Source: Eledone cirrhosa (Eukaryota). Taken from it: a stretch of 64,000 nt of DNA. The DNA lies in assembly GCA_964016885.1 (NCBI GenBank), contig OZ024749.1:10974001-11038000 (forward strand). Reading direction: 5' to 3'. The notes under the pieces are model-generated. The model ran no database searches. It worked only from the letters and a program-made list of their open reading frames with translations, and was not told the origin of the DNA. Positions 23,390 to 60,553 of this stretch are shown here, one piece after another. A program made the position numbers and the translations under genes. Each line of letters opens with the position of its first letter. Positions within the stretch are counted from its first letter, which is position 1.

Positions 23390-24500
23390 ACATCATCATC
23401 ACTGTTTAACGTCCATTTTTCCATGCTAGCATGGGTTAGACGAGTTGTCCTGTTGTGAGAAATTCCAGGTCAGGTAACCATGTCTTAGTCATACAGAACT
23501 GATTTTGGTTTGGTTTCTACAGCTGGATGCCCTTCCTAATGCCAACCATATTTACAGTGTGGGCTGGGTGCTTTTTGTTGTGACACCTACAAGTCCACTT
23601 TACAGTGTGAGCTAGGGACTTTGGTGGGAGAGGTGTGTGGGAATTGTGGAGGTGGGTATTTGGGCGTGTGTGAGGGGTGGAGTGTTAGGACATGGGAGGT
23701 AAGTGGAAGTGAGTGAGGTAGAGGTGGTACCCGCTAATGTATGCTTCAGCCTGTCTTCATGGGAAGAATAGTCTTCTGTATTACTGCATAACACAAGAGA
23801 TCCCGGTCCTGTTCTGTGTCTTTGAGAGGTGTAATTGTGCAAGGTGAGCTTTTATCACCTCATCCTAATTCTTCCTGAGTCTCCCCACTCCAAGCCTTCC
23901 ATCAACTTTGAGAGCTCTGCACTTTTTTTATACCACTGTCATCCTTCATACATATCACATGTCTATACCAACACAATCTCCTCTGCTGCACACTGCATCC
24001 GATTCCTCTTATGCCTAGTTTTTCTCTCAATTCATTTATGCTTTATCATTCACGTATATTACTATTACACATCCATCGGAGCATGCAAGCTTCATTTCTT
24101 TCCAATCTATGCAAGTCTTCTGCACAAAGTGTGCAGGTCTCACTACCATCCAACATTGCTGTTCGTATGCATGCATCATACAGTCTGCCTTTCATTTTGA
24201 GGGAAAAGCCTTGTGTAGCCAGCAGCAGTAGTAGCTCCCTGAACTTCTTTCATCCCATTCTCACTCTGGCAACTGTACTTTCAGAACACCTACCTCCACT
24301 GCTAATTTGGTCACCCAGGTAGCAGAAACTGTCTACTGCTTCTACTGAACCTTCCCAGAATTTAATAGCATTTGTTTCCTGTGGTCTTTTGCTGCTTACT
24401 GCTCCTGTGCAACAGCCACATGTAAAACCTACATTCTTAGCTAAACTTCTGAGATCCCTCTACATCTCTTGTAGTTTGCATTTGGGACAGATGTATAATT
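23390..24500 (-). mobile_element. RTE LINE 3' portion: ORF end, C-rich UTR, shared 3' module, (GAT)n tail
   Basis: Minus strand reads LAKNVGFTCGCCTG, SVEAVDSFCYLGDQISSGGRCSE, KFRELLLLL, KGRLYDACIRTAMLDGSET and DEVIKAHL. The tail CATCATCATCAC lies at ~23391. Confidence 0.88.
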
Positions 24501-27960: not shown

Positions 27961-28139
27961 TGCGCCGTGAAATGGAGACTGCTATATTTTTTTCAAACAG
28001 GCCCCTCTAACTAAGCCGTGAATGTGTCAACAACAACAGCAAAAACCCAGCTCAATAACAACAGCAAAAATGAAAAAGAAATTAAAGGAATTAAGGAGTG
28101 TTCTCTGTAAAATCGATTTATTGATCTCTGATACAAAAG

Positions 28140-28345
28140 TTTATAGTTATGCATTAGTTTAGTCTGTAGGTTTATAGTTGTGCATTCGTTTAGTCTGTAG
28201 GTTTACAGTTGTGCATTAGTTTAGTCTCTAGATTTACAGTTGTGCATTAGTTTAGTCTGTAGGTTTATAGTTGTGCATTAGTTTAGTCTGTAGGTTTATA
28301 TTTGTGCATTAGTTTAGTCTGTATGTTTATAGTTGTGTATTAGTG
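28140..28345. repeat. 31-bp tandem repeat GTTTATAGTTGTGCATTAGTTTAGTCTGTAG, ~6.5 copies
   Basis: Visible directly. Confidence 0.92.
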
Positions 28346-28459
28346 TTAGGAGTGGAGTGGCAATAGTGTTGGGGGGTTATGTTTTTTTTCTGCAAATTAT
28401 ATTATCTTTCTTTGAACCATTTCAAAATGGCGCCATCTAGTCTACGATTGACCGTTTTG

Positions 28460-31400
28460 TAGTCTGGTCCCTTGTTCCATGTATTACATACTTCTATAGT
28501 CCTGTCCCTTGTTCCATGTATTACATACTTCTATAGTCCTGTCCCTGGTTCCATGTATTACATACTTCTATAGTCCTGTCCCTTGTTCCATGTATTACAT
28601 ACTTCTATAGTCTTGTCCCTTGTTCCATGTATTACATACTTCTATAGTCTTGTCCCTTGTTCCATGTATTACATACTTCTATAGTCTTGTCCCTTGTTCC
28701 ATGTATTACATACTTCTATAGTCCTGTCCCTTGTTCCATGTATTACATACTTCTATAGTCTTGTCCCTTGTTCCATGTATTACATACTTCTATAGTCCTG
28801 TCCCTTGTTCCATATATTACATACTTCTATAGTCTTGTCCCTTGTTCCATGTATTACATACTTCTATAGTCCTGTCCCTTGTTCCATGTATTACATACTT
28901 CTATAGTCTTGTCCCTTGTTCCATGTATTACATACTTCTATAGTCCTGTCCCTTGTTCCATGTATTACATACTTCTATAGTCCTGTCCCTTGTTCCATGT
29001 ATTACATACTTCTATAGTCTTGTCCCTTGTTCCATATATTACATACTTCTATAGTCTTGTCCCTTGTTCCATGTATTACATACTTCTATAGTCTTGTCCC
29101 TTGTTCCATATATTACATACTTCTATAGTCTTGTCCCTTGTTCCATGTATTACATACTTCTATAGTCTTGTCCCTTGTCCATGTATTACATACTTCTATA
29201 GTCCTGTCCCTTGTTCCATGTATTACATACTTCTATAGTCCTGTCCCTTGTTCCATGTATTACATACTTCTATAGTCCTGTCCCTTGTTCCATGTATTAC
29301 ATACTTTTATAGTCTTGTCCCTTGTTCCATGTATTACATACTTCTATAGTCCTGTCCCTTGTTCCATGTATTACATACTTCTATAGTCTTGTCTCTTGTT
29401 CCATGTATTACATACTTCTATAGTCTTGTCCCTTGTTCCATGTATTACATACTTCTATAGTCTTGTCCCTTGTTCCATGTATTACATACTTCTATAGTCC
29501 TGTCCCTTGTTCCATGTATTACATACTTCTATAGTCTTGTCCCTTGTTCCATGTATTACATACTTCTATAGTCCTGTCCCTTGTTCCATGTATTACATAC
29601 TTCTATAGTCTTGTCCCTTGTTCCATGTATTACATACTTCTATAGTCTTGTCCCTTGTTCCATGTATTACATACTTCTATAGTCTTGTCCCTTGTTCCAT
29701 GTATTACATACTTCTATAGTCTTGTCCCTTGTTCCATGAATTACATACTTCTATAGTCTTGTCACTTGTTCCATGTATTACATACTTCTATAGTCTTGTC
29801 CCTTGTTCCATGTATTACATACTTCTATAGTCTTGTCCCTTGTTCCATGTATTACATACTTCTATAGTCTTGTCCCTTGTTCCATGTATTACATACTTCT
29901 ATAGTCCTGTCCCTTGTTCCATGTATTACATACTTCTATAGTCCTGTCCCTTGTTCCATGTATTACATACTTCTATAGTCTTGTCCCTTGTTCCATGTAT
30001 TACATACTTCTATAGTCCTGTCCCTTGTTCCATGTATTACATAGTTCTATAGTCTTGTCCCTTGTTCCATGTATTACATACTTCTATAGTCTTTTCCGTT
30101 GTTCCATGTATTACATACTTCTATAGTCTTGTCCCTTGTTCCATGTATTACATACTTCTATAGTCCTGTCCCTTGTTCCATGTATTACATACTTCTATAG
30201 TCTTGTCCCTTGTTCCATGTATTACATACTTCTATAGTCTTTTCCCTTGTTCCATGTATTACATACTTCTATAGTCCTGTCCCTTGTTCCATGTATTACA
30301 TACTTCTATAGTCCTGACCCTTGTTCCATGTATTACATACTTCTATAGTCCTGTCCCGTCTTCCATGTATTACATACTTCTATAGTCTTGTCCCTTGTTC
30401 CATGTATTACATACTTCTATAGTCTTGTCCCTTGTTCCATGTATTACATACTTCTATAGTCCTGTCCCTTGTTCCATGTTACATACTTCTATAGTCTTGT
30501 CCCTTGTTCCATGTATTACATACTTCTATAGTCTTGTCCCTTGTTCCATGTATTACATACTTCTATAGTCTTGTCCCTTGTTCCATGTATTACATACTTC
30601 TATAGTCTTGTCCCTTGTTCCATGTATTACATACTTCTATAGTCCTGTCCCTTGTTCCATGTATTACATACTTCTATAGTCTTGTCCCTTGTTCCATGTA
30701 TTACATACTTCTATAGTCTTGTCCCTTGTTCCATGTATTACATACTTCTATAGTCTTGTCCCTTGTTCCATGTATTACATACTTCTATAGTCCTGTCCCT
30801 TGTTCCATGTATTACATACTTCTATAGTCTTGTCCCTTGTTCCATGTATTACATACTTCTATAGTCCTGTCCCTTGTTCCATGTATTACATACTTCTATA
30901 GTCTTGTCCCTTGTTCCATGTATTACATACTTCTATAGTCTTGTCCCTTGTTCCATGTATTACATACTTCTATAGTCTTGTCCCTTGTTCCATGTATTAC
31001 ATACTTCTATAGTCTTGTCCCTTGTTCCATGTATTACATACTTCTATAGTCCTGTCCCTTGTTCCATGTATTACATACTTCTATAGTCTTGTCCCTTGTT
31101 CCATGTATTACATACTTCTATAGTCCTGTCCCTTGTTCCATGTATTACATACTTCTATAGTCTTGTCCCTTGTTCCATGTATTACATACTTCTATAGTCT
31201 TGTCCCTTGTTCCATGTATTACATACTTCTATAGTCTTGTCCCTTGTTCCATGTATTACATACTTCTATAGTCCTGTCCCTTGTTCCATGTATTACATAC
31301 TTCTATAGTCCTGTCCCGTGTTCCATGTATTACATACTTCTATAGTCTTGTCCCTTGTTCCATGTATTACATACTTCTATAGTCTTGTCCCTTGTTCTAT

Positions 31401-34400
31401 GTATTACATACTTCTATAGTCCTGTCCCTTGTTCCTTGTTACATACTTCTATAGTCTTGTCCCTTGTTCCATGTATTACATACTTCTATAGTCTTGTCCC
31501 TTGTTCCATGTATTACATACTTCTATAGTCTTGTCCCTTGTTCCATGTATTACATACTTCTATAGTCTTGTCCCTTGTTCCATGTATTACATACTTCTAT
31601 AGTCCTGTCCCTTGTTCCATGTATTACATACTTCTATAGTCTTGTCCCTTGTTCCATGTATTACATACTTCTATAGTCTTGTCCCTTGTTCCATGTATTA
31701 CATACTTCTATAGTCCTGTCCCTTGTTCCATGTATTACATACTTCTATAGTCTTGTCCCTTGTTCCATGTATTACATACTTCTATAGTCCTGTCCCTTGT
31801 TCCATATATTACATACTTCTATAGTCTTGTCCCTTGTTCCATGTATTACATACTTCTATAGTCCTGTCCCTTGTTCCATGTATTACATACTTCTATAGTC
31901 TTGTCCCTTGTTCCATGTATTACATACTTCTATAGTCCTGTTCCTTGTTCCATGTATTACATACTTCTATAGTCCTGTCCCTTGTTCCATGTATTACATA
32001 CTTCTATAGTCTTGTCCCTTGTTCCATATATTACATACTTCTATAGTCTTGTCCCTTGTTCCATGTATTACATACTTCTATAGTCCTGTCCCTTGTTCCA
32101 TGTATTACATACTTCTATAGTCTTGTCCCTTGTTCCATGTATTACATACTTCTATAGTCCTGTCCCTTGTTCCATGTATTACATACTTCTATAGTCTTGT
32201 CCCTTGTTCCATGTATTACATACTTCTATAGTCTTGTCCCTTGTTCCATGTATTACATACTTCTATAGTCTTGTCCCTTGTTCCATGTATTACATACTTC
32301 TATAGTCTTGTCCCTTGTTCCATGAATTACATACTTCTATAGTCTTGTCACTTGTTCCATGTATTACATACTTCTATAGTCTTGTCCCTTGTTCCATGTA
32401 TTACATACTTCTATAGTCTTGTCCCTTGTTCCATGTATTACATACTTCTATAGTCTTGTCCCTTGTTCCATGTATTACATACTTCTATAGTCCTGTCCCT
32501 TGTTCCATGTATTACATAGTTCTATAGTCTTGTCCCTTGTTCCATGTATTACATACTTCTATAGTCTTTTCCGTTGTTCCATGTATTACATACTTCTATA
32601 GTCTTGTCCCTTGTTCCATGTATTACATACTTCTATAGTCCTGTCCCTTGTTCCATGTATTACATACTTCTATAGTCTTGTCCCTTGTTCCATGTATTAC
32701 ATACTTCTATAGTCTTTTCCCTTGTTCCATGTATTACATACTTCTATAGTCCTGTCCCTTGTTCCATGTATTACATACTTCTATAGTCCTGACCCTTGTT
32801 CCATGTATTACATACTTCTATAGTCCTGTCCCGTCTTCCATGTATTACATACTTCTATAGTCTTGTCCCTTGTTCCATGTATTACATACTTCTATAGTCT
32901 TGTCCCTTGTTCCATGTATTACATACTTCTATAGTCCTGTCCCTTGTTCCATGTTACATACTTCTATAGTCTTGTCCCTTGTTCCATGTATTACATACTT
33001 CTATAGTCTTGTCCCTTGTTCCATGTATTACATACTTCTATAGTCTTGTCCCTTGTTCCATGTATTACATACTTCTATAGTCTTGTCCCTTGTTCCATGT
33101 ATTACATACTTCTATAGTCCTGTCCCTTGTTCCATGTATTACATACTTCTATAGTCTTGTCCCTTGTTCCATGTATTACATACTTCTATAGTCTTGTCCC
33201 TTGTTCCATGTATTACATACTTCTATAGTCTTGTCCCTTGTTCCATGTATTACATACTTCTATAGTCCTGTCCCTTGTTCCATGTATTACATACTTCTAT
33301 AGTCTTGTCCCTTGTTCCATGTATTACATACTTCTATAGTCCTGTCCCTTGTTCCATGTATTACATACTTCTATAGTCTTGTCCCTTGTTCCATGTATTA
33401 CATACTTCTATAGTCTTGTCCCTTGTTCCATGTATTACATACTTCTATAGTCTTGTCCCTTGTTCCATGTATTACATACTTCTATAGTCTTGTCCCTTGT
33501 TCCATGTATTACATACTTCTATAGTCCTGTCCCTTGTTCCATGTATTACATACTTCTATAGTCTTGTCCCTTGTTCCATGTATTACATACTTCTATAGTC
33601 CTGTCCCTTGTTCCATGTATTACATACTTCTATAGTCTTGTCCCTTGTTCCATGTATTACATACTTCTATAGTCTTGTCCCTTGTTCCATGTATTACATA
33701 CTTCTATAGTCTTGTCCCTTGTTCCATGTATTACATACTTCTATAGTCCTGTCCCTTGTTCCATGTATTACATACTTCTATAGTCCTGTCCCATGTTCCA
33801 TGTATTACATACTTCTATAGTCTTGTCCCTTGTTCCATGTATTACATACTTCTATAGTCTTGTCCCTTGTTCTATGTATTACATACTTCTATAGTCCTGT
33901 CCCTTGTTCCATGTTACATACTTCTATAGTCTTGTCCCTTGTTCCATGTATTACATACTTCTATAGTCTTGTCCCTTGTTCCATGTATTACATACTTCTA
34001 TAGTCTTGTCCCTTGTTCCATGTATTACATACTTCTATAGTCTTGTCCCTTGTTCCATGTATTACATACTTCTATAGTCCTGTCCCTTGTTCCATGTATT
34101 ACATACTTCTATAGTCTTGTCCCTTGTTCCATGTATTACATACTTCTATAGTCTTGTCCCTTGTTCCATGTATTACATACTTCTATAGTCCTGTCCCTTG
34201 TTCCATGTATTACATACTTCTATAGTCTTGTCCCTTGTTCCATGTATTACTTACTTCTATAGTCCTGTCCCTTGTTCCATGTATTACATACTTCTATAGT
34301 CTTGTCCCTTGTTCCATGTATTACATACTTCTATAGTCTTGTCCCTTGTTCCATGTATTACATACTTCTATAGTCTTGTCCCTTGTTCCATGTATTACAT

Positions 34401-37400
34401 ACTTCTATAGTCTTGTCCCTTGTTCCATGTATTACATACTTCTATAGTCCTGTCCCTTGTTCCATGTATTACATACTTCTATAGTCTTGTCCCTTGTTCC
34501 ATGTATTACATACTTCTATAGTCCTGTCCCTTGTTCCATGTATTACATACTTCTATAGTCTTGTCCCTTGTTCCATGTATTACATACTTCTATAGTCTTG
34601 TCCCTTGTTCCATGTATTACATACTTCTATAGTCTTGTCCCTTGTTCCATGTATTACATACTTCTATAGTCCTGTCCCTTGTTCCATGTATTACATACTT
34701 CTTTAGTCCTGTCCCTTGTTCCATATATTACATACTTCTATAGTCCTGTCCCTTGTTCCATGTATTACATACTTCTATAGTCTTTCCCTTGTTCCATGTA
34801 TTACATACTTCTATAGTCTTGTCCCTTGTTCCATGTATTACATACTTCTATAGTCTTGTCCCTTGTTCCATGTATTACAGACTTCTATAGTCGTGTCCCT
34901 TGTTCCATGTATTACATACTTCTATAGTCCTGTCCCTTGTTCCATGTATTACATACTTCTATAGCCTTGTCCCTTGTTCCATGTATTACATACTTCTATA
35001 GTCCTGTCCCTTGTTCCATGTATTACATACTTCTATAGTCCTGTCCCTTGTTCCATGTATTACATACTTCTATCGTCTTGTCCCTTGTTCCATATATTAC
35101 ATACTTCTATAGTCCTGTCCCTTGTTCCATGTATTACATACTTCTATAGTCTTGTCCCTTGTTCCATGTATTACATACTTCTATAGTCCTGTCCCTTGTT
35201 CCATGTATAACATACTTCTATAGTCTTGTCCCTTGTTCCATGTATTACATACTTCTATAGTCCTGTCCCTTGTTCCATGTATTACATACTTCTATAGTCC
35301 TGTCCCTTGTTCCATGTATTACATACTTCTATAGTCCTGTCCCTTGTTCCATGTATTACATACTTCTATAGTCTTGTCCCTTGTTCCATATATTACATAC
35401 TTCTATAGTCCTGTCCCTTGTTCCATGTATTACATACTTCTATAGTCCTGTCCCTTGTTCCATGTATTACATACTTCTATAGTCCTGTCCCTTGTTCCAT
35501 GTATTACATACTTCTATAGTCTTGTCCCTTGTTCCATGTATTACATACTTCTATAGTCTTGTCCCTTGTTCCATATATTACATACTTCTATAGTCCTGTC
35601 CCTTGTTCCATGTATTACATACTTCTATAGTCCTGTCCCTTGTTCCATGTATTACATACTTCTATAGTCTTGTCCCTTGTTCCATGTATTACATACTTCT
35701 ATAGTCTTGTCACTTGTTCCATGTATTACATACTTCTATAGTCCTGTCCCTTGTTCCATGTATTACATACTTCTATAGTCCTGTCCCTTGTTCCATGTAT
35801 TACATACTTCTATAGTCCTGTCCCTTGTTCCATGTATTACATACTTCTATAGTCTTGTCCCTTGTTCCATGTATTTCATACTTCTATAGTCTTGTCCCTT
35901 GTTCCATGTATTACATACTTCTATAGTCTTGTCCCTTGTTCCATGTATTACATACTTCTTTAGTCCTGTCCCTTGTTCCATGTATTACATACTTCTATAG
36001 TCTTGTCCCTTGTTCCATGTTACATACTTCTATAGTCTTGTCCCTTGTTCCATGTATTACACACTTCTATAGTCTTGTCCCTTGTTCCATGTATTACATA
36101 CTTCTATAGTCTTGTCCCTTGTTCCATGTATTACATACTTCTATAGTCCTGTCCCTTGTTCCATGTATTACATACTTCTATAGTCCTGTCCCTTGTTCCA
36201 TGTATTACATACTTCTATAGTCCTGTCCCTTTTTCCATGTATTACATACTTCTATAGTCCTGTCCCTTGTTCCATGTATTACATACTTCTATAGTCTTGT
36301 CCCTTGTTCCATGTATTACATACTTCTATAGTCTTGTCCCTTGTTCCATGTATTACATACTTCTATAGTCTTGTCCCTTGTTCCATGTATTACATACTTC
36401 TATAGTCCTGTCCCTTGTTCCATGTATTACATACTTCTATAGTCTTGTCCCTTGTTCCATGTATTACATACTTCTATAGTCCTGTCCCTTGTTCCATGTA
36501 TTACATACTTCTATAGTCTTGTCCCTTGTTCCATGTATTACATACTTCTATAGTCTTGTCCCTTGTTCCATGTATTACATACTTCTATAGTCTTGTCCCT
36601 TGTTCCATGTATTACATACTTCTATAGTCTTGTCCCTTGTTCCATGTATTACATACTTCTATAGTCCTGTCCCTTGTTCCATGTATTACATACTTCTATA
36701 GTCTTGTCCCTTGTTCCATGTATTACATACTTCTATAGTCCTGTCCCTTGTTCCATGTATTACATACTTCTATAGTCTTGTCCCTTGTTCCATGTATTAC
36801 ATACTTCTATAGTCTTGTCCCTTGTTCCATGTATTACATACTTCTATAGTCTTGTCCCTTGTTCCATGTATTACATACTTCTATAGTCCTGTCCCTTGTT
36901 CCATGTATTACATACTTCTTTAGTCCTGTCCCTTGTTCCATATATTACATACTTCTATAGTCCTGTCCCTTGTTCCATGTATTACATACTTCTATAGTCT
37001 TTCCCTTGTTCCATGTATTACATACTTCTATAGTCTTGTCCCTTGTTCCATGTATTACATACTTCTATAGTCTTGTCCCTTGTTCCATGTATTACAGACT
37101 TCTATAGTCGTGTCCCTTGTTCCATGTATTACATACTTCTATAGTCCTGTCCCTTGTTCCATGTATTACATACTTCTATAGCCTTGTCCCTTGTTCCATG
37201 TATTACATACTTCTATAGTCCTGTCCCTTGTTCCATGTATTACATACTTCTATAGTCCTGTCCCTTGTTCCATGTATTACATACTTCTATCGTCTTGTCC
37301 CTTGTTCCATATATTACATACTTCTATAGTCCTGTCCCTTGTTCCATGTATTACATACTTCTATAGTCTTGTCCCTTGTTCCATGTATTACATACTTCTA

Positions 37401-39101
37401 TAGTCCTGTCCCTTGTTCCATGTATAACATACTTCTATAGTCTTGTCCCTTGTTCCATGTATTACATACTTCTATAGTCCTGTCCCTTGTTCCATGTATT
37501 ACATACTTCTATAGTCCTGTCCCTTGTTCCATGTATTACATACTTCTATAGTCCTGTCCCTTGTTCCATGTATTACATACTTCTATAGTCTTGTCCCTTG
37601 TTCCATATATTACATACTTCTATAGTCCTGTCCCTTGTTCCATGTATTACATACTTCTATAGTCCTGTCCCTTGTTCCATGTATTACATACTTCTATAGT
37701 CCTGTCCCTTGTTCCATGTATTACATACTTCTATAGTCTTGTCCCTTGTTCCATGTATTACATACTTCTATAGTCTTGTCCCTTGTTCCATATATTACAT
37801 ACTTCTATAGTCCTGTCCCTTGTTCCATGTATTACATACTTCTATAGTCCTGTCCCTTGTTCCATGTATTACATACTTCTATAGTCTTGTCCCTTGTTCC
37901 ATGTATTACATACTTCTATAGTCTTGTCACTTGTTCCATGTATTACATACTTCTATAGTCCTGTCCCTTGTTCCATGTATTACATACTTCTATAGTCCTG
38001 TCCCTTGTTCCATGTATTACATACTTCTATAGTCCTGTCCCTTGTTCCATGTATTACATACTTCTATAGTCTTGTCCCTTGTTCCATGTATTTCATACTT
38101 CTATAGTCTTGTCCCTTGTTCCATGTATTACATACTTCTATAGTCTTGTCCCTTGTTCCATGTATTACATACTTCTTTAGTCCTGTCCCTTGTTCCATGT
38201 ATTACATACTTCTATAGTCTTGTCCCTTGTTCCATGTTACATACTTCTATAGTCTTGTCCCTTGTTCCATGTATTACACACTTCTATAGTCTTGTCCCTT
38301 GTTCCATGTATTACATACTTCTATAGTCTTGTCCCTTGTTCCATGTATTACATACTTCTATAGTCCTGTCCCTTGTTCCATGTATTACATACTTCTATAG
38401 TCCTGTCCCTTGTTCCATGTATTACATACTTCTATAGTCCTGTCCCTTTTTCCATGTATTACATACTTCTATAGTCCTGTCCCTTGTTCCATGTATTACA
38501 TACTTCTATAGTCTTGTCCCTTGTTCCATGTATTACATACTTCTATAGTCTTGTCCCTTGTTCCATGTATTACATACTTCTATAGTCTTGTCCCTTGTTC
38601 CATGTATTACATACTTCTATAGTCCTGTCCCTTGTTCCATGTATTACATACTTCTATAGTCTTGTCCCTTGTTCCATGTATTACATACTTCTATAGTCTT
38701 GTCCCTTGTTCCATGTATTACATACTTCTATAGTCCTGTCCCTTGTTCCATATATTACATACTTCTATAGTCCTGTCCCTTGTTCCATGTATTACATACT
38801 TCTATAGTCCTGTCCCTTGTTCCATGTATTACATACTTCTATAGTCCTGTCCCTTTTTCCATGTATTACATACTTCTATAGTCTTGTCCCTTGTTCCATG
38901 TATTACATACTTCTATAATCTTGTCCCTTGTTCCATGTATTACATACTTCTATAGTCTCTTCCCTTGTTCCATGTATTACATACTTCTATAGTCCTGTCC
39001 CTTGTTCCATGTATTACATACTTCTATAGTCCTGTCCCTTGTTCCATGTATTACATACTTCTATAGTCTTGTCCCTTGTTCCATGTATTACATACTTCTA
39101 T
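28460..39101. repeat. 37-bp satellite GTCCCTTGTTCCATGTATTACATACTTCTATAGTC(C/T)T, ~287 copies (10.6 kb)
   Basis: Highly homogeneous 37-bp period; one common C/T variant plus rare marker variants. Confidence 0.98.
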
Positions 39102-40498: not shown

Positions 40499-41368
40499 TT
40501 GTTCTATGATAAAATAATGTTTGTTTCGAAGTGTTTATATTTATTTAAACACCTTCCATCATAATTTTATGTAAGGATCTTTGTTAAGTTATGTTCCAAA
40601 CACTAAGCTAAATAATGAGAAAGTTAGTTATATTACTACATCTTACTTTCTTGATTATTTACAGAATTATATGAAACTCATAGGCAGTGTCTTTTATAAA
40701 GAAGTATGGTATAGTTTTGTTTCACAGAACCAGAGACTGCTTTGTGTGGGTTGGTATCAAAATGATTAAACATATATTGTAAGGCAACTGCAGATGAAGT
40801 ACCTAGCTAAAGGTAAACCACTTTAGTTGGCTTTTGTGGACCTTGGGAAAGCTTTTGACAGAATCTCCTGTTCCATTATCTGGTGGGCTCCTAGAAAATT
40901 AGGAATAGACTTGTGGCTTTTGAGGGCAGTACATGTCATGTATAAAGGAACAGCCAACAACGTCAGAATTAACAATGACTATAGTGAAGAATTTAGCGTA
41001 CAAGTAGGTGTTCATCAGGGCTCAGTTCTTAGCCCTCTCCTGTTTATTATCACCCTGCAGGCTATAACGGAGGAATTTAAGACTGGTTTCCCATGAGAAC
41101 TCCTGTATGCAGATGACCTAACCCTTATAGCTGAATCTATGGCTGAATTAGAAAAACAATTTCAAACTTGGAAGCATGGCCTAGAATCAAAAGGTCTTAA
41201 AGTTAACTTGGCAAAGTTCTAGTAAGTAGAAAGGAAAACGGGGCCAGATCTCCTCAACAAAATGGCTGTCCTCAGTGTCCAGATAAAGAATAGGTAGAAA
41301 TTTCATCCAATGTCACAAATGCAAACTATAGGTACACAAGAGATGTAGTGAGATCACAGACAGGTTAT

Positions 41369-44300
41369 CTAGTGTTTATATATGGCTGGTGCACAGGTGT
41401 AGTGTTTATATATGGCTGGTGCACAGGTGTAGTGTTTATATCTGGCTGGTGTACAGGTGTAGTGTTTATATATGGCTGGTGCACAGGTGTAGTGTTTATA
41501 TGTGGCTGGTACACAGGTGTAGTGTTTATATGTGGCTGGTACACAGGTGTAGTGTTTATATATGGCTGGTACACAGGTGTAGTGTTTATATGTGGCTGGT
41601 GTACAGGTGTAGTGTTTATATGTAGCTGGTGCACAGGTGTAGTGTTTATATATGGCTGGTGCACAGGTGTAGTGTATATATGTGGCTGGTGCACAGGTGT
41701 AGTGTTTATATATGGCTGGTGCACAGGTGTAGTGTATATATGTGGCTGGTACACAGGTGTAGTGTTTATATATGGCTGGTGCACAGGTGTAGTGTTTATA
41801 TGTGGCTGGTGCACAGGTGTAGTGTATATATGTAGCTGGTGCACAGGTCTAGTGTTTATATGTGGCTGGTGCACAGGTGTAGTGTATATATATGGCTGGT
41901 ACACAGGTCTAGTATTTATATGTGGCTGGTACACAGGTCTAGTGTTTATATGTGGCTGGTGCACAGGTGTAGTGTATATATGTAGCTGGTGCACAGGTGT
42001 AGTGTTTATATATGGCTGGTGCACAGGTGTAGTGTTTATATGTGGCTGGTGCACAGGTGTAGTGTTTATATGTGGCTGGTGTACAGGTGTAGTGTTTATA
42101 TATGGCTGGTGCACAGGTGTAGTGTTTATATATGGCTGGTGCACAGGTGTAGTGTTTATATGTGGCTGGTGCACAGGTGTAGTGTATATATGTAGCTGGT
42201 GCACAGGTGTAGTGTTTATATATGGCTGGTACACAGGTGTAGTGTTTATATATGGCTGGTACACAGGTCTAGTGTTTATATATGGCTGGTACACAGGTGT
42301 AGTGTTTATATATGGCTGGTGCACAGGTGTAGTGTTTATATATGGCTGGTACACAGGTCTAGTGTTTATATATGGCTGGTACACAGGTCTAGTGTTTATA
42401 TATGGCTGGTACACAGGTGTAGTGTTTATATGTGGCTGGTGCACAGGTGTAGTGTTTATATATGGCTGGTACACAGGTGTAGTGTTTATATATGGCTGGT
42501 ACACAGGTCTAGTGTTTATATATGGCTGGTACACAGGTGTAGTGTTTATATATGGCTGGTGCACAGGTGTAGTGTTTATATGTGGCTGGTGCACAGGTGT
42601 AGTGTTTATATATGGCTGGTGCACAGGTGTAGTGTTTATATATGGCTGGTGCACAGGTGTAGTGTTTATATGTGGCTGGTGCACAGGTGTAGTGTTTATA
42701 TATGGCTGGTACACAGGTGTAGTGTTTATATATGGCTGGTACACAGGTGTAGTGTTTATATGTGGCTGGTGCACAGGTGTAGTGTTTATATATGGCTGGT
42801 ACACAGGTGTAGTGTTTATATATGGCTGGTACACAGGTCTAGTGTTTATATATGGCTGGTGCACAGGTGTAGTGTTTATATGTGGCTGGTGCACAGGTGT
42901 AGTGTTTATATATGGCTGGTGCACAGGTGTAGTGTTTATATGTGGCTGGTGCACAGGTGTAGTGTTTATATGTGGCTGGTACACAGGTGTAGTGTTTATA
43001 TGTGGCTGGTGCACAGGTGTAGTGTTTATATATGGCTGGTGCACAGGTGTAGTGTTTATATGTGGCTGGTGCACAGGTGTAGTGTTTATATATGGCTGGT
43101 GCACAGGTGTAGTGTTTATATATGGCTGGTGCACAGGTGTAGTGTTTATATATGGCTGGTGCACAGGTGTAGTGTTTATATGTGGCTGGTGTACAGGTGT
43201 AGTGTTTATATATGGCTGGTGCACAGGTGTAGTGTTTATATATGGCTGGTGTACAGGTGTAGTGTTTATATGTGGCTGGTGTACAGGTGTAGTGTTTATA
43301 TATGGCTGGTGCACAGGTGTAGTGTTTATATATGGCTGGTGCACAGGTGTAGTGTTTATATATGGCTGGTGCACAGGTGTAGTGTTTATATATGGCTGGT
43401 GCACAGGTGTAGTGTATATATATGGCTGGTGTACAGGTGTAGTGTTTATATGTGGCTGGTGTACAGGTGTAGTGTTTATATATGGCTGGTGCACAGGTGT
43501 AGTGTTTATATATGGCTGGTGTACAGGTGTAGTGTTTATATGTGGCTGGTGTACAGGTGTAGTGTTTATATATGGCTGGTGCACAGGTGTAGTGTTTATA
43601 TATGGCTGGTGTACAGGTGTAGTGTTTATATATGGCTGGTGTACAGGTGTAGTGTTTATATATGGCTGGTGCACAGGTGTAGTGTTTATATATGGCTCGT
43701 GCACAGGTGTAGTGTTTATATATGGCTGGTGCACAGGTGTAGTGTTTATATATGGCTGGTGCACAGGTGTAGTGTTTATATGTGGCTGGTGTACAGGTGT
43801 AGTGTTTATATATGGCTGGTGCACAGGTGTAGTGTTTATATATGGCTGGTGTACAGGTGTAGTGTTTATATGTGGCTGGTGTACAGGTGTAGTGTTTATA
43901 TATGGCTGGTGCACAGGTGTAGTGTTTATATATGGCTGGTGCACAGGTGTAGTGTTTATATATGGCTGGTGCACAGGTGTAGTGTTTATATATGGCTGGT
44001 GCACAGGTGTAGTGTATATATATGGCTGGTGTACAGGTGTAGTGTTTATATGTGGCTGGTGTACAGGTGTAGTGTTTATATATGGCTGGTGCACAGGTGT
44101 AGTGTTTATATATGGCTGGTGTACAGGTGTAGTGTTTATATGTGGCTGGTGTACAGGTGTAGTGTTTATATATGGCTGGTGCACAGGTGTAGTGTTTATA
44201 TATGGCTGGTGCACAGGTGTAGTGTTTATATGTGGCTGGTGTACAGGTGTAGTGTTTATATATGGCTGGTGTACAGGTGTAGTGTTTATATATGGCTGGT

Positions 44301-44623
44301 GTACAGGTGTAGTGTTTATATGTGGCTGGTGTACAGGTGTAGTGTTTATATATGGCTGGTGTACAGGTGTAGTGTTTATATGTGGCTGGTGTACAGGTGT
44401 AGTGTTTATATATGGCTGGTGTACAGGTGTAGTGTATATATATGGCTGGTACACAGGTGTAGTGTTTATATGTGGCTGGTGTACAGGTGTAGTGTTTATA
44501 TGTGGCTGGTGTACAGGTGTAGTGTATATATATGGCTGGTACACAGGTGTAGTGTTTATATGTAGCTGGTACACAGGTGTAGTGTATATATGTGGCTGGT
44601 GCACAGGTGTAGTGTTTATATGT
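41369..44623. repeat. 30-bp satellite AGTGTTTATAT(A/G)TGGCTGGT(G/A)(C/T)ACAGGTGT, ~108 copies, LINE-derived
   Basis: Exact 30-bp period with no indels; 21/23 match to the RTE copy at 24404-24426. Confidence 0.97.
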
Positions 44624-44786
44624 GTTTAAATGATGTTTAAATGACCAGGGGTCTCTGTAGAAGTAGTTGACAGTTTCTGTTACCTGGGTGACCAAATTAG
44701 CAGTGGAAGAGGGTGTTCTGAAACTACAGTAGCTAGGGTGGAGAAAGTTCAGGGAGTTACTACCGCTGCTAACTACAAATGGCTTT

Positions 44787-47700
44787 AGGGAGACCTGGGT
44801 ATGATGTGTGTATATGAACAGCAAAGTTGTATGGTAGGGAGACCTGGGTATGATGTGTGTATATGAACAACAAAGTTGTAAGGTAGGGAGACCTGGGTAT
44901 GATGTGTGTATATGAACAACAAAGTTGTAAGGTAGGGAGACCTGGGTATGATGTGTGTATATGAACAGTAAAGTTGTATGGTAGGGAGACCTGGGTATGA
45001 TGTGTGTATATGAACAGTAAAGTTGTATGGTAGAGAGACCTGGGTATGATGTGTGTATATGAACAGCAAAGTTGTATAGTAGGGAGACCTGGGTATGATG
45101 TGTGTATATGAACAGCAAAGTTGTATAGTAGGGAGACCTGGGTATGATGTGTGTATATGAACAGTAAAGTTGTATGGTAGGGAGACCTGGGTATGATGTG
45201 TGTATATGAACAGCAAAGTTGTATGGTAGGGAGACCTGGGTATGATGTGTGTATATGAACAACAAAGTTGTAAGGTAGGGAGACCTGGGTATGATGTGTG
45301 TATATGAACAGTAAAGTTGTATGGTAGGGAGACCTGGGTATGATGTGTGTATATGAACAGCAAAGTTGTATGGTAGGGAGACCTGGGTATGATGTGTGTA
45401 TATGAACAACAAAGTTGTAAGGTAGGGAGACCTGGGTATGATGTGTGTATATGAACAGTAAAGTTGTATAGTAGGGAGACCTGGGTATGATGTGTGTATA
45501 TGAACAGTAAAGTTGTATGGTAGAGAGACCTGGGTATGATGTGTGTATATGAACAGTAAAGTTGTATGGTAGGGAGACCTGGGTATGATGTGTGTATATG
45601 AACAGCAAAGTTGTATGGTAGGGAGACCTGGGTATGATGTGTGTATATGAACAGCAAAGTTGTATGGTAGGGAGACCTGGGTATGATGTGTGTATATGAA
45701 CAGTAAAGTTGTATGGTAGGGAGACCTGGGTATGATGTGTGTATATGAACAGCAAAGTTGTATGGTAGGGAGACCTGGGTATGATGTGTGTATATGAACA
45801 GTAAAGTTGTATAGTAGGGAGACCTGGGTATGATGTGTGTATATGAACAACAAAGTTGTAAGGTAGGGAGACCTGGGTATGATGTGTGTATATGAACAGT
45901 AAAGTTGTAAGGTAGGGAGACCTGGGTATGATGTGTGTATATGAACAACAAAGTTGTAAGGTAGGGAGACCTGGGTATGATGTGTGTATATGAACAACAA
46001 AGTTGTAAGGTAGGGAGACCTGGGTATGATGTGTGTATATGAACAACAAAGTTGTAAGGTAGGGAGACCTGGGTATGATGTGTGTATATGAACAACAAAG
46101 TTGTATGGTAGGGAGACCTGGGTATGATGTGTGTATATGAACAGTAAAGTTGTATGGTAGGGAGACCTGGGTATGATGTGTGTATATGAACAACAAAGTT
46201 GTAAGGTAGGGAGACCTGGGTATGATGTGTGTATATGAACAGTAAAGTTGTATGGTAGGGAGACCTGGGTATGATGTGTGTATATGAACAGTAAAGTTGT
46301 AAGGTAGGGAGACCTGGGTATGATGTGTGTATATGAACAACAAAGTTGTAAGGTAGGGAGACCTGAGTATGATGTGTGTATATGAACAGTAAAGTTGTAT
46401 GGTAGGGAGACCTGGGTATGATGTGTGTATATGAACAGTAAAGTTGTATGGTAGGGAGACCTGGGTATGATGTGTGTATATGAACAGTAAAGTTGTATGG
46501 TAGGGAGACCTGGGTATGATGTGTGTACATGAACAACAAAGTTGTAAGGTAGGGAGACCTGGGTATGATGTGTGTATATGAACAACAAAGTTGTAAGGTA
46601 GGGAGACCTGGGTATGATGTGTGTATATGAACAGCAAAGTTGTATGGTAGGGAGACCTGGGTATGATGTGTGTATATGAACAGTAAAGTTGTATGGTAGG
46701 GAGACCTGGGTATGATGTGTGTATATGAACAGCAAAGTTGTATGGTAGGGAGACCTGGGTATGATGTGTGTATATGAACAGTAAAGTTGTATAGTAGGGA
46801 GACCTGGGTATGATGTGTGTATATGAACAACAAAGTTGTAAGGTAGGGAGACCTGGGTATGATGTGTGTATATGAACAGTAAAGTTGTAAGGTAGGGAGA
46901 CCTGGGTATGATGTGTGTATATGAACAACAAAGTTGTAAGGTAGGGAGACCTGGGTATGATGTGTGTATATGAACAGTAAAGTTGTATGGTAGGGAGACC
47001 TGGGTATGATGTGTGTATATGAACAGTAAAGTTGTAAGGTAGGGAGACCTGGGTATGATGTGTGTATATGAACAACAAAGTTGTAAGGTAGGGAGACCTG
47101 AGTATGATGTGTGTATATGAACAGTAAAGTTGTATGGTAGGGAGACCTGGGTATGATGTGTGTATATGAACAGTAAAGTTGTATGGTAGGGAGACCTGGG
47201 TATGATGTGTGTATATGAACAGTAAAGTTGTATGGTAGGGAGACCTGGGTATGATGTGTGTACATGAACAACAAAGTTGTAAGGTAGGGAGACCTGGGTA
47301 TGATGTGTGTATATGAACAACAAAGTTGTAAGGTAGGGAGACCTGGGTATGATGTGTGTATATGAACAACAAAGTTGTAAGGTAGGGAGACCTGGGTATG
47401 ATGTGTGTATATGAACAGTAAAGTTGTATGGTAGGGAGACCTGGGTATGATGTGTGTATATGAACAGTAAAGTTGTAAGGTAGGGAGACCTGGGTATGAT
47501 GTGTGTATATGAACAGTAAAGTTGTATGGTAGGGAGACCTGGGTATGATGTGTGTATATGAACAGTAAAGTTGTAAGGTAGGGAGACCTGGGTATGATGT
47601 GTGTATATGAACAGTAAAATTGTATGGTAGGGAGACCTGGGTATGATGTGTGTATATGAACAGTAAAGTTGTATGGTAGGGAGACCTGGGTATGATGTGT

Positions 47701-47837
47701 GTATATGAACAGTAAAGTTGTAAGGTAGGGAGACCTGGGTATGATGTGTGTATATGAACAGCAAAGTTGTATGGTAGGGAGACCTGGGTATGATGTGTGT
47801 ATATGAACAGCAAAGTTGTAAGGTAGGGAGACCTGGG
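44787..47837. repeat. 49-bp satellite AGGGAGACCTGGGTATGATGTGTGTATATGAACAG(C/T)AAAGTTGTA(T/A)GGT, ~62 copies, LINE-derived
   Basis: Exact 49-bp period; 41/48 match to the RTE copy at 24134-24181. Confidence 0.97.
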
Positions 47838-48161
47838 CGCTGTGTGCAGGAAACCTGCGAAGTTTGGAAAGAAATTAAGCTTCCATGCTTTGATGAATGT
47901 GCGATAGCAATATACATGAACAGCAAAGCATAAACGAACTGTGAGAGAAATTAGGCATAAGAGGGATCAGATGCAGTGTGCAGGAGAAGAGATTATGTTG
48001 GTATGGATATGTGATGTGTATGAAAGCTGACAGCTGTATAAAAAGGTGCAGAGGGCTCAAAGTTGATGGAAGCTATGGAATGGGTTGGGATGAGGTAATA
48101 AAAGCTGACCTTGCACAATTGCACCTCTCAAAGGCCATGACACAGGACAGAGATTAGGGCA

Positions 48162-48462
48162 TCAACATATGTTAACTTCGGTCTTCCTCTTCCAGTGTTT
48201 CCATGCAGGGGCTTCCACAGGAGCACTGAGTGCAGTGTCAACTCTGGATGTCGGTGAGCATGTCCAGCTAACCTCAGTTTCCTGTGTCACTTTTGAGCTG
48301 ACTTTTGGGAGGCTCCCATACAGCTCTGAGTTCTTCATCCTAAGTGTATACTGATTAATGTTCAGAGCCATCCTCAGCATTCTCATGTAGCACCCATCCA
48401 CCATCTGAGTGAGTTTCTTGGTCAGTGTCCAAGTTTCAGACCCGTACAGCAGCACAGACTCA
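48162..48462 (-). pseudogene. C-terminal fragment of a different RTE-like LINE
   Basis: SVLLYGSETWTLTKKLTQMVDGCYMRMLRMALNI..NSELYGSLPKVS. Confidence 0.85.
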
Positions 48463-48465
48463 TAT

Positions 48466-48712
48466 CACTGCTCTACACCAACACCAAAGCCCAAGTCATT
48501 ACACCTGATGGGATGACAGAATTATTTGAGATACTGGCCGGAGTGCTCCAGGGAGATACATTGGCTCCCAACCTTTTTATCATCGCAGTGGACTATTGTA
48601 TGTGCCTTGCGCTGGAGAAACACCAGGACTCTGGCTTTACTGTAACACCGGTATAGAGCAGGAGAGTTAAGGCAAAAAGGATATCGGATGCTGAATTTGC
48701 CAACGACATAGT
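48466..48712 (+). pseudogene. RT fragment, probably of the same LINE, in inverted orientation
   Basis: ALYTNTKAQVITPDGMTELFEILAGVLQGDTLAP..FIIAVDY...ISDAEFANDI. Confidence 0.85.
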
Positions 48713-50178: not shown

Positions 50179-50540
50179 AACCACTTTACAGTGTGTACTG
50201 GTTGCTTTTTGTTGTGGCACCTACACAACCACTTTACAGTGTAGACTGGTTGCTTTTTGTTGTGGCACCTACACAACCACTTTACAGTGTGACCTGGTTG
50301 CTTTTTGTTGTGGCACCTACACAACCACTTTACAGTGTGTACTGGTTGCTTTTTATTGTGGCACCTACACAACCACTTTACAGTGTGACCTGGTTGCTTT
50401 TTGTTGTGGCACCTACACAACCACTTTACAGTGTGTACTGGTTGCTTTTTGTTGTGGCACCTACACAACCACTTTACAGTGTGTACTGGTTGCTTTTTGT
50501 TGTGGCACCTACACAACCACTTTACAGTGTAGACTGGGTG
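50179..50540. repeat. 48-bp tandem repeat (~7.5 copies) amplified from the SINE2/LINE 3' module
   Basis: Unit AACCACTTTACAGTGTGTACTGGTTGCTTTTTGTTGTGGCACCTACAC matches 23545-23592. Confidence 0.93.
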
Positions 50541-50962
50541 CTGGACTAGGGAAGATGCATGGGGATTTGAGAGGTAAATTTTGTGTGCGGGACTTATCAG
50601 GTGGGGGCTGGGGGTGTAGGTGAAGGGTGGGGGTGGTGTTAGGATGTGGGTAAAAGGTGGAGTGTTAGGATGGGGGAGGCGTATTGAAGGAGGAGGGGCA
50701 GGTAGGGGAAAATGGTGCATACTAGATGTATACTTCAACCTGTGAACATGAGAAAGTGGGTTTTCTGTATTACTACATAATGCCAGAGATCTTGATCCTG
50801 TGTCATTGCCTTCGAGGGGTACACTTGTGCAAGGTCTGTCTTTAACACCTCATCCCATTTCTTCCAGGGTCTTCCTACTCCATAGCTACCATCAACTTTG
50901 AGTGTCCTGAACCTTTTTATACAGCTGTCATCCTTCATAAACATCACATAACATCCATGTTA

Positions 50963-51066
50963 AACTACATTCTTAGCTAACTTACCTGTGATCCCACTAC
51001 ATTCTTAGCTAACTTACCTGTGATCCCACTACATTCTTAGCTAACTTACCTGTGATCCCATTACAT
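50963..51066. repeat. 32-bp triplication inside the RTE ORF
   Basis: ACTACATTCTTAGCTAACTTACCTGTGATCCC three times (minus strand GITGKLAKNV). Confidence 0.9.
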
Positions 51067-51876
51067 TTCTTACATACCCATAGTTTGCATTCGGGTTAGA
51101 GGATGGAATTTCTACCCACCCCTTTCCTACAAACTGAGCAAGGTCATTTCCCTAAGTGGGTCTTTGTCATGTTTTCCTTTCTGCTTACTTTAGTCTTTGT
51201 CAAGTTGATTTTAAGACCTTTTAATTCCAGGTCAGGAATTTTTTCTCTAGTTCTGTCATAGATTCAGCTGTGAGTTATATCATCAGCATACGGGAGCTCC
51301 CAAGGGCATGTAGCAAAGCGACACCTGTGGTGTGATAGCTCTGACGTCATAAATGGACGTCATAAAAATAACACAGACACTCCGGCAAAAAAAATGCAGA
51401 GCGACAACACATATTTTTCTTGAAGCTGATTGTACAAACACACACCAGCCATTCGTATTCTTCTGAATATTTTTGCAAGTCATAAATACACAAATACACA
51501 TTGTCTAAAGGCATCTCATTTTAAACTCATCTTTTGTAGCCTATAGGGCAATAATAAATAGATGAGTTCTGTTATGGGTTCATGTGATCTGGGTGGGTTC
51601 TTTCTGGGATACATAGCGTTGATGTTATGGGGTCGTTTTTTGTAGTGTTGGAGGTGATACCTCTTTTAGTTGTTAATGTGGGATGGTTTTGTTGGGATTT
51701 CATGTGGTCTGTACGGATTTCTTCTGAAGTGTATGGTGTTTGTGTTGCGGGTTAGTTCTATGTTGTTTTGGGGTTGCTTTATGTATGTATGTATATACAC
51801 AACCCTTATCAAGTCCTCTTTGGATTTTGGTCTTCATATCTATTATTACACTATTATTATTATTATTATTACTAAG

Positions 51877-58014: not shown

Positions 58015-60553
58015 GGTTCTTTAGTGTAGTGGTTAACACACTTGCCTGGCATCTGAGAGATCTGGGCCTCACTCATATCCTCACCCATACCTCTGTCTAC
58101 TGTTCTTTAGTGTTAACACACTTGCCTGGCAACTGAGAGATCTGGGCCTCACTCATATCCTCACTCATACCTCTGTCTACTGTTCTTTAGTGTTAATACA
58201 CTTGCCTGGCATCTGAGAGATCTGGGCCTCACTCATATCCTCACTCATACCTCTGTCTACTGTTCTTTAGTGTTAACACACTTGCCTGGTATCTGAGAGA
58301 TCTGGGCCTCACTCATATCCTCACCCATACCTCTGTCTACTGTTCTTTAGTGGTTAACACACTTGCCTGGCAACTGAGAGATCTGGGCCTCACTCATATC
58401 CTCACCCATACCCCTGTCTACTGTTCTTTAGTGGTTAACACACTTGCCTGGCAACTGAGAGATCTGGGTCTCACTCATATCCTCACCCATACCTCTGTCT
58501 ACTGTTCTTTAGTGTTAACACACTTTCCTGGCAACTGAGAGATCTGGGTCTCACTCATATCCTCACCCACACCTCTGTCTACTGTTCTTTAGTGTTAACA
58601 CACTTTCCTGGCAACTGAGAGATCTGGGCCTCACTCATATCCTCACCCACACCTCTGTCTACTGTTCTTTAGTGTTAACACACTTTCCTGGCAACTGAGA
58701 GATCTGGGCCTCACTCATATCCTCACCCATACCTCTGTCTACTGTTCTTTAGTGGTTAACACACTTGCCTGGCAACTGAGAGATCTGGGCCTCACTCATA
58801 TCCTCACCCATACCTTTGTCTACTGTTCTTTAGTGTTAACACACTTGCCTGGCAACTGAGAGATCTGGGCCTCACTCATATCCTCACCCATACCTCTGTC
58901 TACTGTTCTTTAGTGTTAACACACTTGCCTGGCAACTGAGAGATCTGGGCCTCATTCATATCCTCACTCACACCTCTGTCTACTGTTCTTTAGTGGTTAA
59001 CACACTTGCCTGGCATCTGAGAGATCTGGGCCTCACTCATATCCTCACTCATACCTCTGTCTACTGTTCTTTAGTGTTAACACACTTTCCTGGCAACTGA
59101 GAGATCTGGGCCTCACTCATATCCTCACCCATACCTCTGTCTACTGTTCTTTAGTGGTTAACACACTTGCCTGGCAACTGAGAGATCTGGGCCTCACTCA
59201 TATCCTCACTCACACCTCTGTCTACTGTTCTTTAGTGGTTAACACACTTGCCTGGCATCTGAGAGATCTGGGCCTCACTCATATCCTCACTCATACCTCT
59301 GTCTACTGTTCTTTAGTGTTAACACACTTGCCTGGCATCTGAGAGATCTGGGCCTCACTCATATCCTCACCCATACCTCTGTCTACTGTTCTTTAGTGGT
59401 TAACACACTTTCCTGGCAACTGAGAGATCTGGGCCTCACTCATATCCTCACCCATACCCCTGTCTACTGTTCTTTAGTGGTTAACACACTTGCCTGGCAA
59501 CTGAGAGATCTGGGCCTCACTCATATCCTCACCCACACCTCTGTCTACTGTTCTTTAGTGTTAACACACTTGCCTGGCAACTGAGAGATCTGGGCCTCAC
59601 TCATATCCTCACCCATACCTCTGTCTACTGTTCTTTAGTGGTTAACACACTTGCCTGGCAACTGAGAGATCTGGGTCTCACTCATATCCTCACCCATACC
59701 TTTGTCTACTGTTCTTTAGTGTTAACACACTTGCCTGGCAACTGAGAGATCTGGGCCTCACTCATATCCTCACCCATACCTCTGTCTACTGTTCTTTAGT
59801 GGTTAACACACTTGCCTGGCAACTGAGAGATCTGGGTCTCACTCATATCCTCACCCATACCTTTGTCTACTGTTCTTTAGTGTTAATACACTTGCCTGGC
59901 AACTGAGAGATCTGGGCCTCACTCATATCCTCACCCATACCTCTGTCTACTGTTCTTTAGTGTTAACACACTTTCCTGGCAACTGAGAGATCTGGGCCTC
60001 ACTCATATCCTCACTCATATCCTCACTCACACCTCTGTCTACTGTTCTTTAGTGGTTAACACACTTGCCTGGCATCTGAGAGATCTGGGCCTCACTCATA
60101 TCCTCACTCATACCTCTGTCTACTGTTCTTTAGTGTTAACACACTTGCCTGGCAACTGAGAGATCTGGGCCTCACTCATATCCTCACCCATACCTCTGTC
60201 TACTGTTCCTTAGTGTTAACACACTTGCCTGGCAACTGAGAGATCTGGGCCTCACTCATATCCTCACCCACACCTCTGTCTACTGTTCTTTAGTGGTTAA
60301 CACACTTGCCTGGCAACTGAGAGATCTGGGCCTCACTCATATCCTCACCCACACCTCTGTCTACTGTTCTTTAGTGGTTAACACACTTGCCTGGCAACTG
60401 AGAGATCTGGGCCTCACTCATATCCTCACCCATACCTCTGTCTACTGTTCTTTAGTGGTTAACACACTTGCCTGGCATCTGAGAGATCTGGGCCTCACTC
60501 ACACCTCTGTCTACTGTTCTTTAGTGGTTAACACACTTGCCTGGCAACTGAGA
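58015..60553 (+). repeat. 80/81-bp satellite with a tRNA-like 5' half, ~31 copies
   Basis: Unit GTTCTTTAGTG(G)TTAACACACTTGCCTGGCA(A/T)CTGAGAGATCTGGGCCTCACTCATATCCTCACCCATACCTCTGTCTACT. Confidence 0.96.

Follow-up and report, generated by a model that had tools for sequence, protein, structure and literature searches.

Two minisatellites of 3 kb each are built from pieces of the dead LINE copy in which they still lie, each having probably arisen by a short duplication followed by duplication of multi-unit blocks, and no function is needed to account for them. The window, by which we mean the whole stretch of 64,000 nucleotides that was analysed (G000:C9:10,974,001-11,038,000), belongs to a 3.0-Gb assembly of 1,796 contigs. 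A sequence-only reading of the window had described a ~1.1-kb LINE remnant swollen to ~7.4 kb by two nearby arrays, and this description holds: TRF reports a 30-bp unit repeated 108.4 times (41370-44621; 95% matches, 0% indels) and a 49-bp unit repeated 62.3 times (44786-47837; 96% matches, 0% indels), both as assembled and separated by 164 bp, and the total span of 7,381 bp contains 1,077 LINE bases outside both arrays.

Two minisatellites in one dead LINE copy

Both arrays break up one ~1.1-kb LINE copy, and stops and frameshifts in all three LINE segments (left flank, spacer and right flank) show that its ORF is dead. The flanks diverge by 10-14% from the majority sequence of the LINE family. 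A search for a host gene among 119 stop-free frames of at least 55 amino acids gave one reverse transcriptase match and one sub-threshold DUF match; short exons would escape a search of this kind. The features of the locus and of related sequences in the window are as follows.

40777..41369, + strand: 5' part of a dead, 5'-truncated LINE copy, covering the reverse transcriptase region and the beginning of a PHD finger; Pfam RVT_1 matches with E 1e-8 and 2e-5, 75-86% identity to sisters, 11.9% from the family majority
41370..44621, + strand: 30-bp minisatellite of 108 units and 19 unit types (TRF, variant map); its source is the segment coding for the end of the PHD finger, as seen in intact sisters
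44613..44644, + strand: right junction of the 30-bp array, with a partial unit, missing LINE bases and an 11-bp duplication (alignment)
44622..44785, + strand: LINE spacer of 164 bp separating the arrays; 3,655 candidate matches, of which 40 were scored, with 80-85% identity
44786..47837, + strand: 49-bp minisatellite of 62 units and 13 unit types, left edge deleted and right edge clean (TRF, variant map, alignment)
47838..48157, + strand: 3' part of the LINE ORF remnant, stopping at the start of another LINE fragment (alignment to sisters)
23800..24489, - strand: sister LINE copy with each unit once (alignment)
50179..51308, - strand: a further copy of the same LINE, carrying small arrays of 32 bp x3.4 (50964-51072) and 48 bp x7.6 (50179-50542; a 3' tail repeat) (TRF, alignment)
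58027..60553, + strand: 80-bp x31 array grown out of a short dispersed element; in a further copy of this element (L156) a segment that overlaps the 80-bp one produced an array of 53 bp x49.5 (alignment)

With head-to-tail units inside the 10-100 bp range, and with a collinear likeness to a TE segment that exceeds 70% (22/28 and 40/48 positions), both arrays belong with the TE-derived minisatellites. They do not belong with the classical satellite DNA families, which are abundant and multi-locus or form very long heterochromatic arrays, each array here being 3 kb long and confined to one locus.

Collinear position of the units in the LINE

For comparison with unamplified relatives, the spacer was used as a genome query, and 29 sister copies were fetched following the scoring of 40 candidates. 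The left flank, the spacer and the right flank align in order to these 29 spacer-bearing sisters with ~75-85% identity, most of them keeping one or both flanks, and both arrays are absent from all 29. The earlier claim that unamplified versions of both units occur in the sister copy at 24.1-24.4 kb was borne out, as the 30-bp unit is found at 24404-24431 (minus strand, 22/28 identical) and the 49-bp unit at 24134-24181 (minus strand, 40/48 identical). So was the claim that each array sits at the position its unit comes from: when 3.1-kb sister loci were searched on both strands, the best match of the 30-bp unit was the collinear site in 18/29 loci (median score 26 versus 20 for shuffled sequence) and that of the 49-bp unit in 24/29 (52 versus 22). 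Within the 1.85 Mb fetched, 23 non-tandem copies span the site of the 30-bp array and 38 that of the 49-bp array. Taken from these alignments, an origin in place is supported, in which both arrays arose from segments of the LINE itself.

Relatives of the copy define the type of element. L101 carries Exo_endo_phos together with RVT_1, the latter also present in the window copy, which makes the family an APE-type non-LTR retrotransposon; in the less decayed L139 and L140 the reverse transcriptase is followed by a PHD finger behind its core, and the 30-bp unit derives from the end of the PHD-coding segment. The family may belong to the RTE clade. Among the 120 homologs listed for it there was no named RTE reference, the named ones coming from Hydractinia, Branchiostoma and one metagenome bin. 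RTE-clade LINEs such as the octopus RTE-2_OV share with the intact relatives an endonuclease and a reverse transcriptase in one long frame, but RTE-2_OV is described with a C2H2 finger (PMC9115989), whereas the present family has its PHD finger right behind the reverse transcriptase core.

Loss of LINE bases at the array edges

The ORF had been read as resuming collinearly after each array. The order is indeed collinear, but the resumption is not exact and the ORF is no longer functional: the parent interval measures 59 bp at the 30-bp array, where one unit and the partial unit together make 42, and 74 bp instead of 63 at the 49-bp array, so that 17 and 11 bp have been lost. In the alignments, deletions lie at three of the four array edges, namely both edges of the 30-bp array, where the right one is accompanied by an 11-bp duplication, and, in the 49-bp array, the left edge only, the right one being clean. 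The LINE copy holds six deletions of at least 6 bp, three of which are these, while the other three match the 2.83 per kb seen across 16 sisters. Against that rate, deletions at three of four edges have P ~6e-4, a post hoc value for one locus with a 20-bp window.

Microhomology-mediated tandem duplication predicts a parent interval equal to the unit plus one arm, and the intervals found here are 17 and 11 bp longer. Exact direct-repeat arms at the unit borders were not above chance: the arm is 1 base at lag 49 in the family majority and 1-4 bases in 12 single sisters, and the 30-bp motif was not found in the majority. The deletions have taken away part of the sequence on which this comparison rests, including part of the upstream arms.

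Coupled or separate birth

The two arrays could have been seeded together, either in one break-repair event with template switching or through instability of the first array. Several observations point this way. Both inner edges, facing the 164-bp spacer, are deleted, one with the 11-bp duplication, and all five aligned duplications in the LINE ORF (30, 49, 32, 47 and 16 bp) adjoin a deletion. Among ~68 untargeted copies and the 29 sisters, kilobase arrays in the ORF occur in the present copy only, and there are two of them there. Another element with a pair of arrays is found 62 kb downstream, where a 26-bp x74 array and a 48-bp x~30 array are 171 bp apart with both units collinear in one sister. 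We nevertheless regard a coupled origin as unlikely. Pairs of unlike arrays close to each other show only a weak excess in the 524-kb region around the window (own pair excluded: 2 versus 0.8 expected within 200 bp, P 0.05; 4 versus 1.6 within 400 bp, P 0.02), the corresponding figures in other blocks being 2 versus 1.9 and 4 versus 2.8, and both units fall in one element in just one of ten other close pairs. At 1-2% per copy, a family of at least 3,655 copies would be expected to contain about one double copy by chance, and the unit diversity of the two arrays is unequal (5.5% versus 3.7%).

Variants within the arrays

It is clear from the variant maps that both arrays consist of interspersed unit types. 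The 30-bp array shows its 19 types graded from left to right, and neither array contains indels. In the 30-bp array a block of 16 units recurs 20 units (600 bp) further on, where 300 shuffles gave a maximum of 7; the longest recurring block in the 49-bp array is 9 units, within the shuffle range (maximum 11). The mean pairwise divergence between units is 5.5% in the 30-bp array and 3.7% in the 49-bp array, and singleton changes number 3 in 3,240 bases and 1 in 3,038 bases, respectively, corresponding to 0.03-0.09% per base. Because the flanks have diverged by far more than these singletons, the LINE appears to be old and the array turnover recent, far younger than the insertion.

Inflation of really short arrays by the assembler is very improbable. 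The read support consists of short-read contigs of a single sample, perhaps the assembled individual, and the array lengths are given as assembled; yet one or two original units cannot explain 19 and 13 unit types, graded variants and the lack of indels, and it is this variant structure that speaks against such inflation. Contigs from runs X2-X4 give an exact, unique match to 40614-40991 at a depth of 6-12.5, whereas in the same runs the contig depths summed across the first unit (41373-41399) reach 268-956, with 0 in X1, values that are not a measure of copy number. Two short-read contigs reach 28-30 bases from the LINE into the first unit, the threshold for bridging being 31 bases, and run X1 (share 0.16) gave no contig piece specific to the locus. 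The depth over the first 30-bp unit fits a high copy number, and the recurring 600-bp block could be a partial over-expansion by the assembler.

Confinement to a single locus

Neither unit was found arrayed elsewhere in a non-exhaustive genome search that skips very common words: for the 30-bp unit all 26 candidates were scored, and for the 49-bp unit 40 of 733 candidates, which contained single units. The interspersed variants and the block structure, the block being significant only in the 30-bp array, are likewise those of a single-locus repeat. Parallel arrays of the 30-bp unit had been suggested by matches on C1 and C4 (72-80%), and were rejected, the units there being unrelated ones of 16-40 bp with no LINE flanks in all five regions fetched; a dispersal of the same arrays independently of the LINE, which the sequence-only reading had named as a refutation, was not found in these searches. 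That the arrays are dispersed satellites which inserted into the LINE or travelled with it is the least probable reading of all, because the units occupy their own collinear position, all 29 sisters lack both arrays and no further array of either unit was found, even though some segments (48-, 61- and 112-bp units) do seed arrays at several loci and the search covered only part of the candidates for the 49-bp unit.

Arrays across the genome

The density of such arrays was determined in 40 evenly spaced 20-kb blocks, ten each on C1, C4 and C9 and ten on other chromosomes, counting complex arrays of at least 500 bp. We found 28 of them in 16 of the 40 blocks, with a mean cover of 13% (23 loci when the six pieces of a single 227-bp satellite are counted once), and they occur on most of the chromosomes sampled; all TRF repeats together make up about one third of the sampled DNA (mean of the 40 blocks). 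The 524 kb around the window contain 38 arrays (41 with another filter order) and 26% cover, which is one array per 14 kb compared with one per 35 kb in the blocks. The process had been taken to be local, a view that fails against these numbers, the region being only ~2.5-fold richer. On C9, 60 kb of blocks at 2-14 Mb yielded 7 arrays, compared with 2 in the 140 kb of the remaining seven blocks, and there were no complex arrays in five interior C1 blocks (55-235 Mb) or in 50 kb of interior C2. The region is an enriched domain of a genome-wide habit, and the same process is likely to operate throughout the genome, with more arrays in the distal part of the chromosome that holds the window.

It had further been supposed that the process acts on arbitrary segments of 20-80 bp and may account for all seven large arrays in the window. 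Many different segments have indeed been amplified in the region, but some are used repeatedly: 48- and 112-bp segments seed arrays at several loci, a 61-bp segment has given arrays on C9 and C18, and the 80-bp array of the window begins inside a dispersed element, a copy of which at C9:1.32 Mb has another right flank and carries the 53-bp array noted above. A tRNA origin of this element was rejected, as ARAGORN found no genes in five loci. The attribution of all seven arrays to one process went beyond the evidence, since a single-unit parent was found for three of them (30, 49 and 80 bp). Candidates for the 37-bp array are unscored; the 24-bp array gave only 21 partial flank matches, none entering the unit except the locus itself; and for the 20- and 26-bp arrays no parent that spans them turned up within 1.16 Mb. 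Of 46 arrays with at least ten units and both flanks, targeted loci included, 16 are matched across a junction by at least two dispersed homologs within the 1.85 Mb fetched.

Proposed origin and intermediate stages

In the scheme we favour, an old 5'-truncated LINE would have inserted and decayed, and long after insertion two short tandem duplications would have arisen in it, seeded by replication slippage at short repeats or by end-joining with templated synthesis. Each seed would then have expanded through repeated duplication of multi-unit blocks, by unequal sister exchange, gene conversion or long slippage, and the edges may have lost their LINE bases at seeding or through later erosion. 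The seeding step, the order of seeding and expansion, the mechanism of block duplication and the neutrality of the process are inferred.

Small arrays in the same LINE family would represent earlier stages. The 32-bp x3.4 array at 50964-51072 is built from the segment adjoining the 30-bp unit and has a 6-bp arm, with a ~450-bp deletion beside it; a 16-bp x2 repeat in L015 replaces deleted bases at the site of the 30-bp array; and a 47-bp x4.1 array overlaps the site of the 49-bp array, with a 7-bp deletion on the left and a clean right edge. In another element, a 112-bp segment occurs at 2, 3, 9 and 18 copies. Clean duplications with short arms account for 8 of 19 dimers and trimers with a known parent (five of the eight being one 112-bp event), and the same holds for an array of 33 bp x38 and for one of ~61 bp; the remaining 11 of 19 are not clean, most having been scored without inspection by eye. 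Deletions at the junctions are common among the duplications of the present LINE but are no general rule.

Discussion

The observation made from the sequence was real and was read too strongly as rare and local. In particular, the statement that the parental context of TE-derived satellites is usually lost does not agree with the literature. Ahmed and Liang (2012, PMC3389668) report 7,276 TE-derived tandem repeats in humans, identified by similarity or by positional overlap with TEs, and 5,747 single-locus clusters, and squamates are reported to have SINE-derived satellites (PMC10702118). Minisatellites that derive from a TE, occupy one locus and keep their parent in place are already known, and the present locus is a clear example.

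The human repeats share with ours a unit that is a TE segment, an array overlapping its parent, a single locus and local duplication, and some TE segments are hotspots, as here (PMC3389668). They differ in size and abundance: Alu-derived arrays average 2.3-2.4 units and TE-derived arrays mostly have 2-3, compared with 62-108 units and two arrays in one element here, and the human arrays total 1.05 Mb (0.32%), while complex arrays of at least 500 bp cover ~13% of our evenly spaced samples (PMC3389668). Squamate sSats, the SINE-derived satellites of Vassetzky et al. (2023, PMC10702118), are likewise tandem arrays, in which part of a retroposon is repeated from a few to hundreds of times; they arise separately and tend to lie towards chromosome ends, as here, but their units are 70-290 nt long and form multi-locus families, in contrast to our 30- and 49-bp units from a LINE ORF, private to one locus. 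PROsat, Pvc 20 and chicken HinfI resemble LINE coding sequence (ORF2) in their unit but are listed as satellite DNA families (PMC9659126), unlike two private arrays inside the parent copy. Microhomology-mediated tandem duplication, proposed as a general seed by Wei et al. (2026, PMC13167724, citing the Haber and Louis model), is the best fit to the clean seeds of other elements and to the 32-bp x3.4 array with its 6-bp arm; it gives exact unit-plus-arm junctions, whereas the 30- and 49-bp arrays have junction deletions and arms not above chance.

What may be new is the scale, with about one third of the sampled DNA being tandem repeat; tandem repeats are given as ~6% of the human genome, by other definitions than those used here (PMC13167724). 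We found no paper on cephalopod minisatellites or satellitomes in the literature searched, most subscription papers lying outside it, and the O. vulgaris repeat annotation (PMC13282606), in the part concerned, puts tandem repeats under 'other repeats' with no analysis of such arrays. A rough extrapolation would give tens of thousands of array loci and more than a tenth of the genome. Only tentatively would we suggest that this genome turns ordinary segments of 15-120 bp into private kilobase arrays at a very large scale, often seeded at deletion junctions, which would be a signature of break repair, and sometimes as linked pairs.

The locus alone changes nothing. Its value is that of a ruler, as thousands of unamplified sisters let the gains and losses at the junctions be counted at the birth of an array, and such counts bear on the open question of how arrays start, the start being explained for only 6% of the human TE-derived repeats (PMC3389668). 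If the sampled density holds, private minisatellites would be a major part of the 3.0-Gb genome, with consequences for genome size, assembly and the design of markers. If the large-scale reading is true, the genome would be a natural system for following how satellites are born, grow and erode at their edges, as compared with thousands of parent TE copies, and would reveal a route of genome expansion that is apparently undescribed for this animal group.

Paired arrays in and near single elements

The pairing of two arrays within one dead LINE copy (window 40777-48157, plus strand; 30-bp and 49-bp arrays) has a counterpart on the same chromosome (C9 of the E. cirrhosa assembly, G000), and a further pair of neighbouring arrays lies in the window itself.

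G000:C9:11,082,632-11,086,110 (locus L207), second two-array element, 26 bp x 74 and 48 bp x ~30, gap 171 bp
Window 28139-28349, 31-bp x 6.8 array, 110 bp before the 37-bp array
Window 28460-39101, 37-bp x 288 array

L207 is a copy of a short dispersed element, and one of its sister copies contains the 26-bp and the 48-bp unit, both at collinear sites. A unit related to the 48-bp unit of L207 is repeated 4.6 times at window 13922-14143. For the spacer between the 31-bp and 37-bp arrays, the 1.85 Mb of genomic sequence retrieved held no homolog. A 22-bp and 30-bp array pair is present twice on chromosome C1, inverted and 0.8 Mb apart (L062-L064 at 36.05 Mb, L067-L068 at 35.22 Mb), with flanks common to both copies; this is a duplicated segment carrying its arrays.

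The dispersed element that is the source of the window's 80-bp array has also given rise to a 53-bp x 49.5 array (L156/L175, G000:C9:1,321,145-1,323,769), the unit borders of which differ from those of the 80-bp array.

The LINE family and the fragment next to the two-array copy

A fragment of one different LINE, with its two parts in opposite orientations, cuts off the two-array copy at its 3' end.

Window 48158-48480, minus strand, 3' RT tail, adjoining the RT core
Window 48470-48712, plus strand, RT core, adjoining the 3' RT tail

The fragment (48158-48712) looks like a 5'-inverted insertion, such as twin priming would produce.

A more distant copy of the family of the two-array LINE lies at window 15774-17184 (plus strand; ~64-70% identity, RVT_1 E 1e-17), its end overlapped by a minus-strand fragment. 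In this family a PHD finger follows immediately behind the RT core (L139:4322-6019, L140:6757-7854, L101:3710-5809), RVT_1 and PHD being common to many among the 120 homologs listed, and several copies keep stop-free frames of 470-790 aa.

Arrays of other kinds

Two arrays may be coding, as judged by eye from their sequence.

L227:107-1057 (C13:5.01 Mb), 84-bp x 11 array
L071:3447-4590 (C9:11.04 Mb), 73-bp x 16 array

The motif of the 84-bp array suggests, by eye, tandemly repeated zinc-finger coding sequence and not a neutral minisatellite. The 73-bp unit may be exonic, and the pyrimidine-rich tract ahead of its array resembles, by eye, a splice acceptor.

Very long arrays were found among L055-L059, L231-L235, L125-L126 and L190-L194.

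C4, 28-bp array, at least 50 kb
C20, 54-bp array, at least 50 kb
C4, 55-bp array, at least 20 kb
Roughly 150 kb before the window, 60-bp x 710 array, 42.6 kb

Two satellites were found at L087-L088 (C1:280 Mb) and L121-L122 (C4:130 Mb): one is GC-rich, has a 227-bp unit and is interrupted in places, and the other, with a 7-bp unit, occupies 20 kb. Both satellites are interior to the largest chromosomes (C1 and C4) and are candidates for centromere-type satellites.
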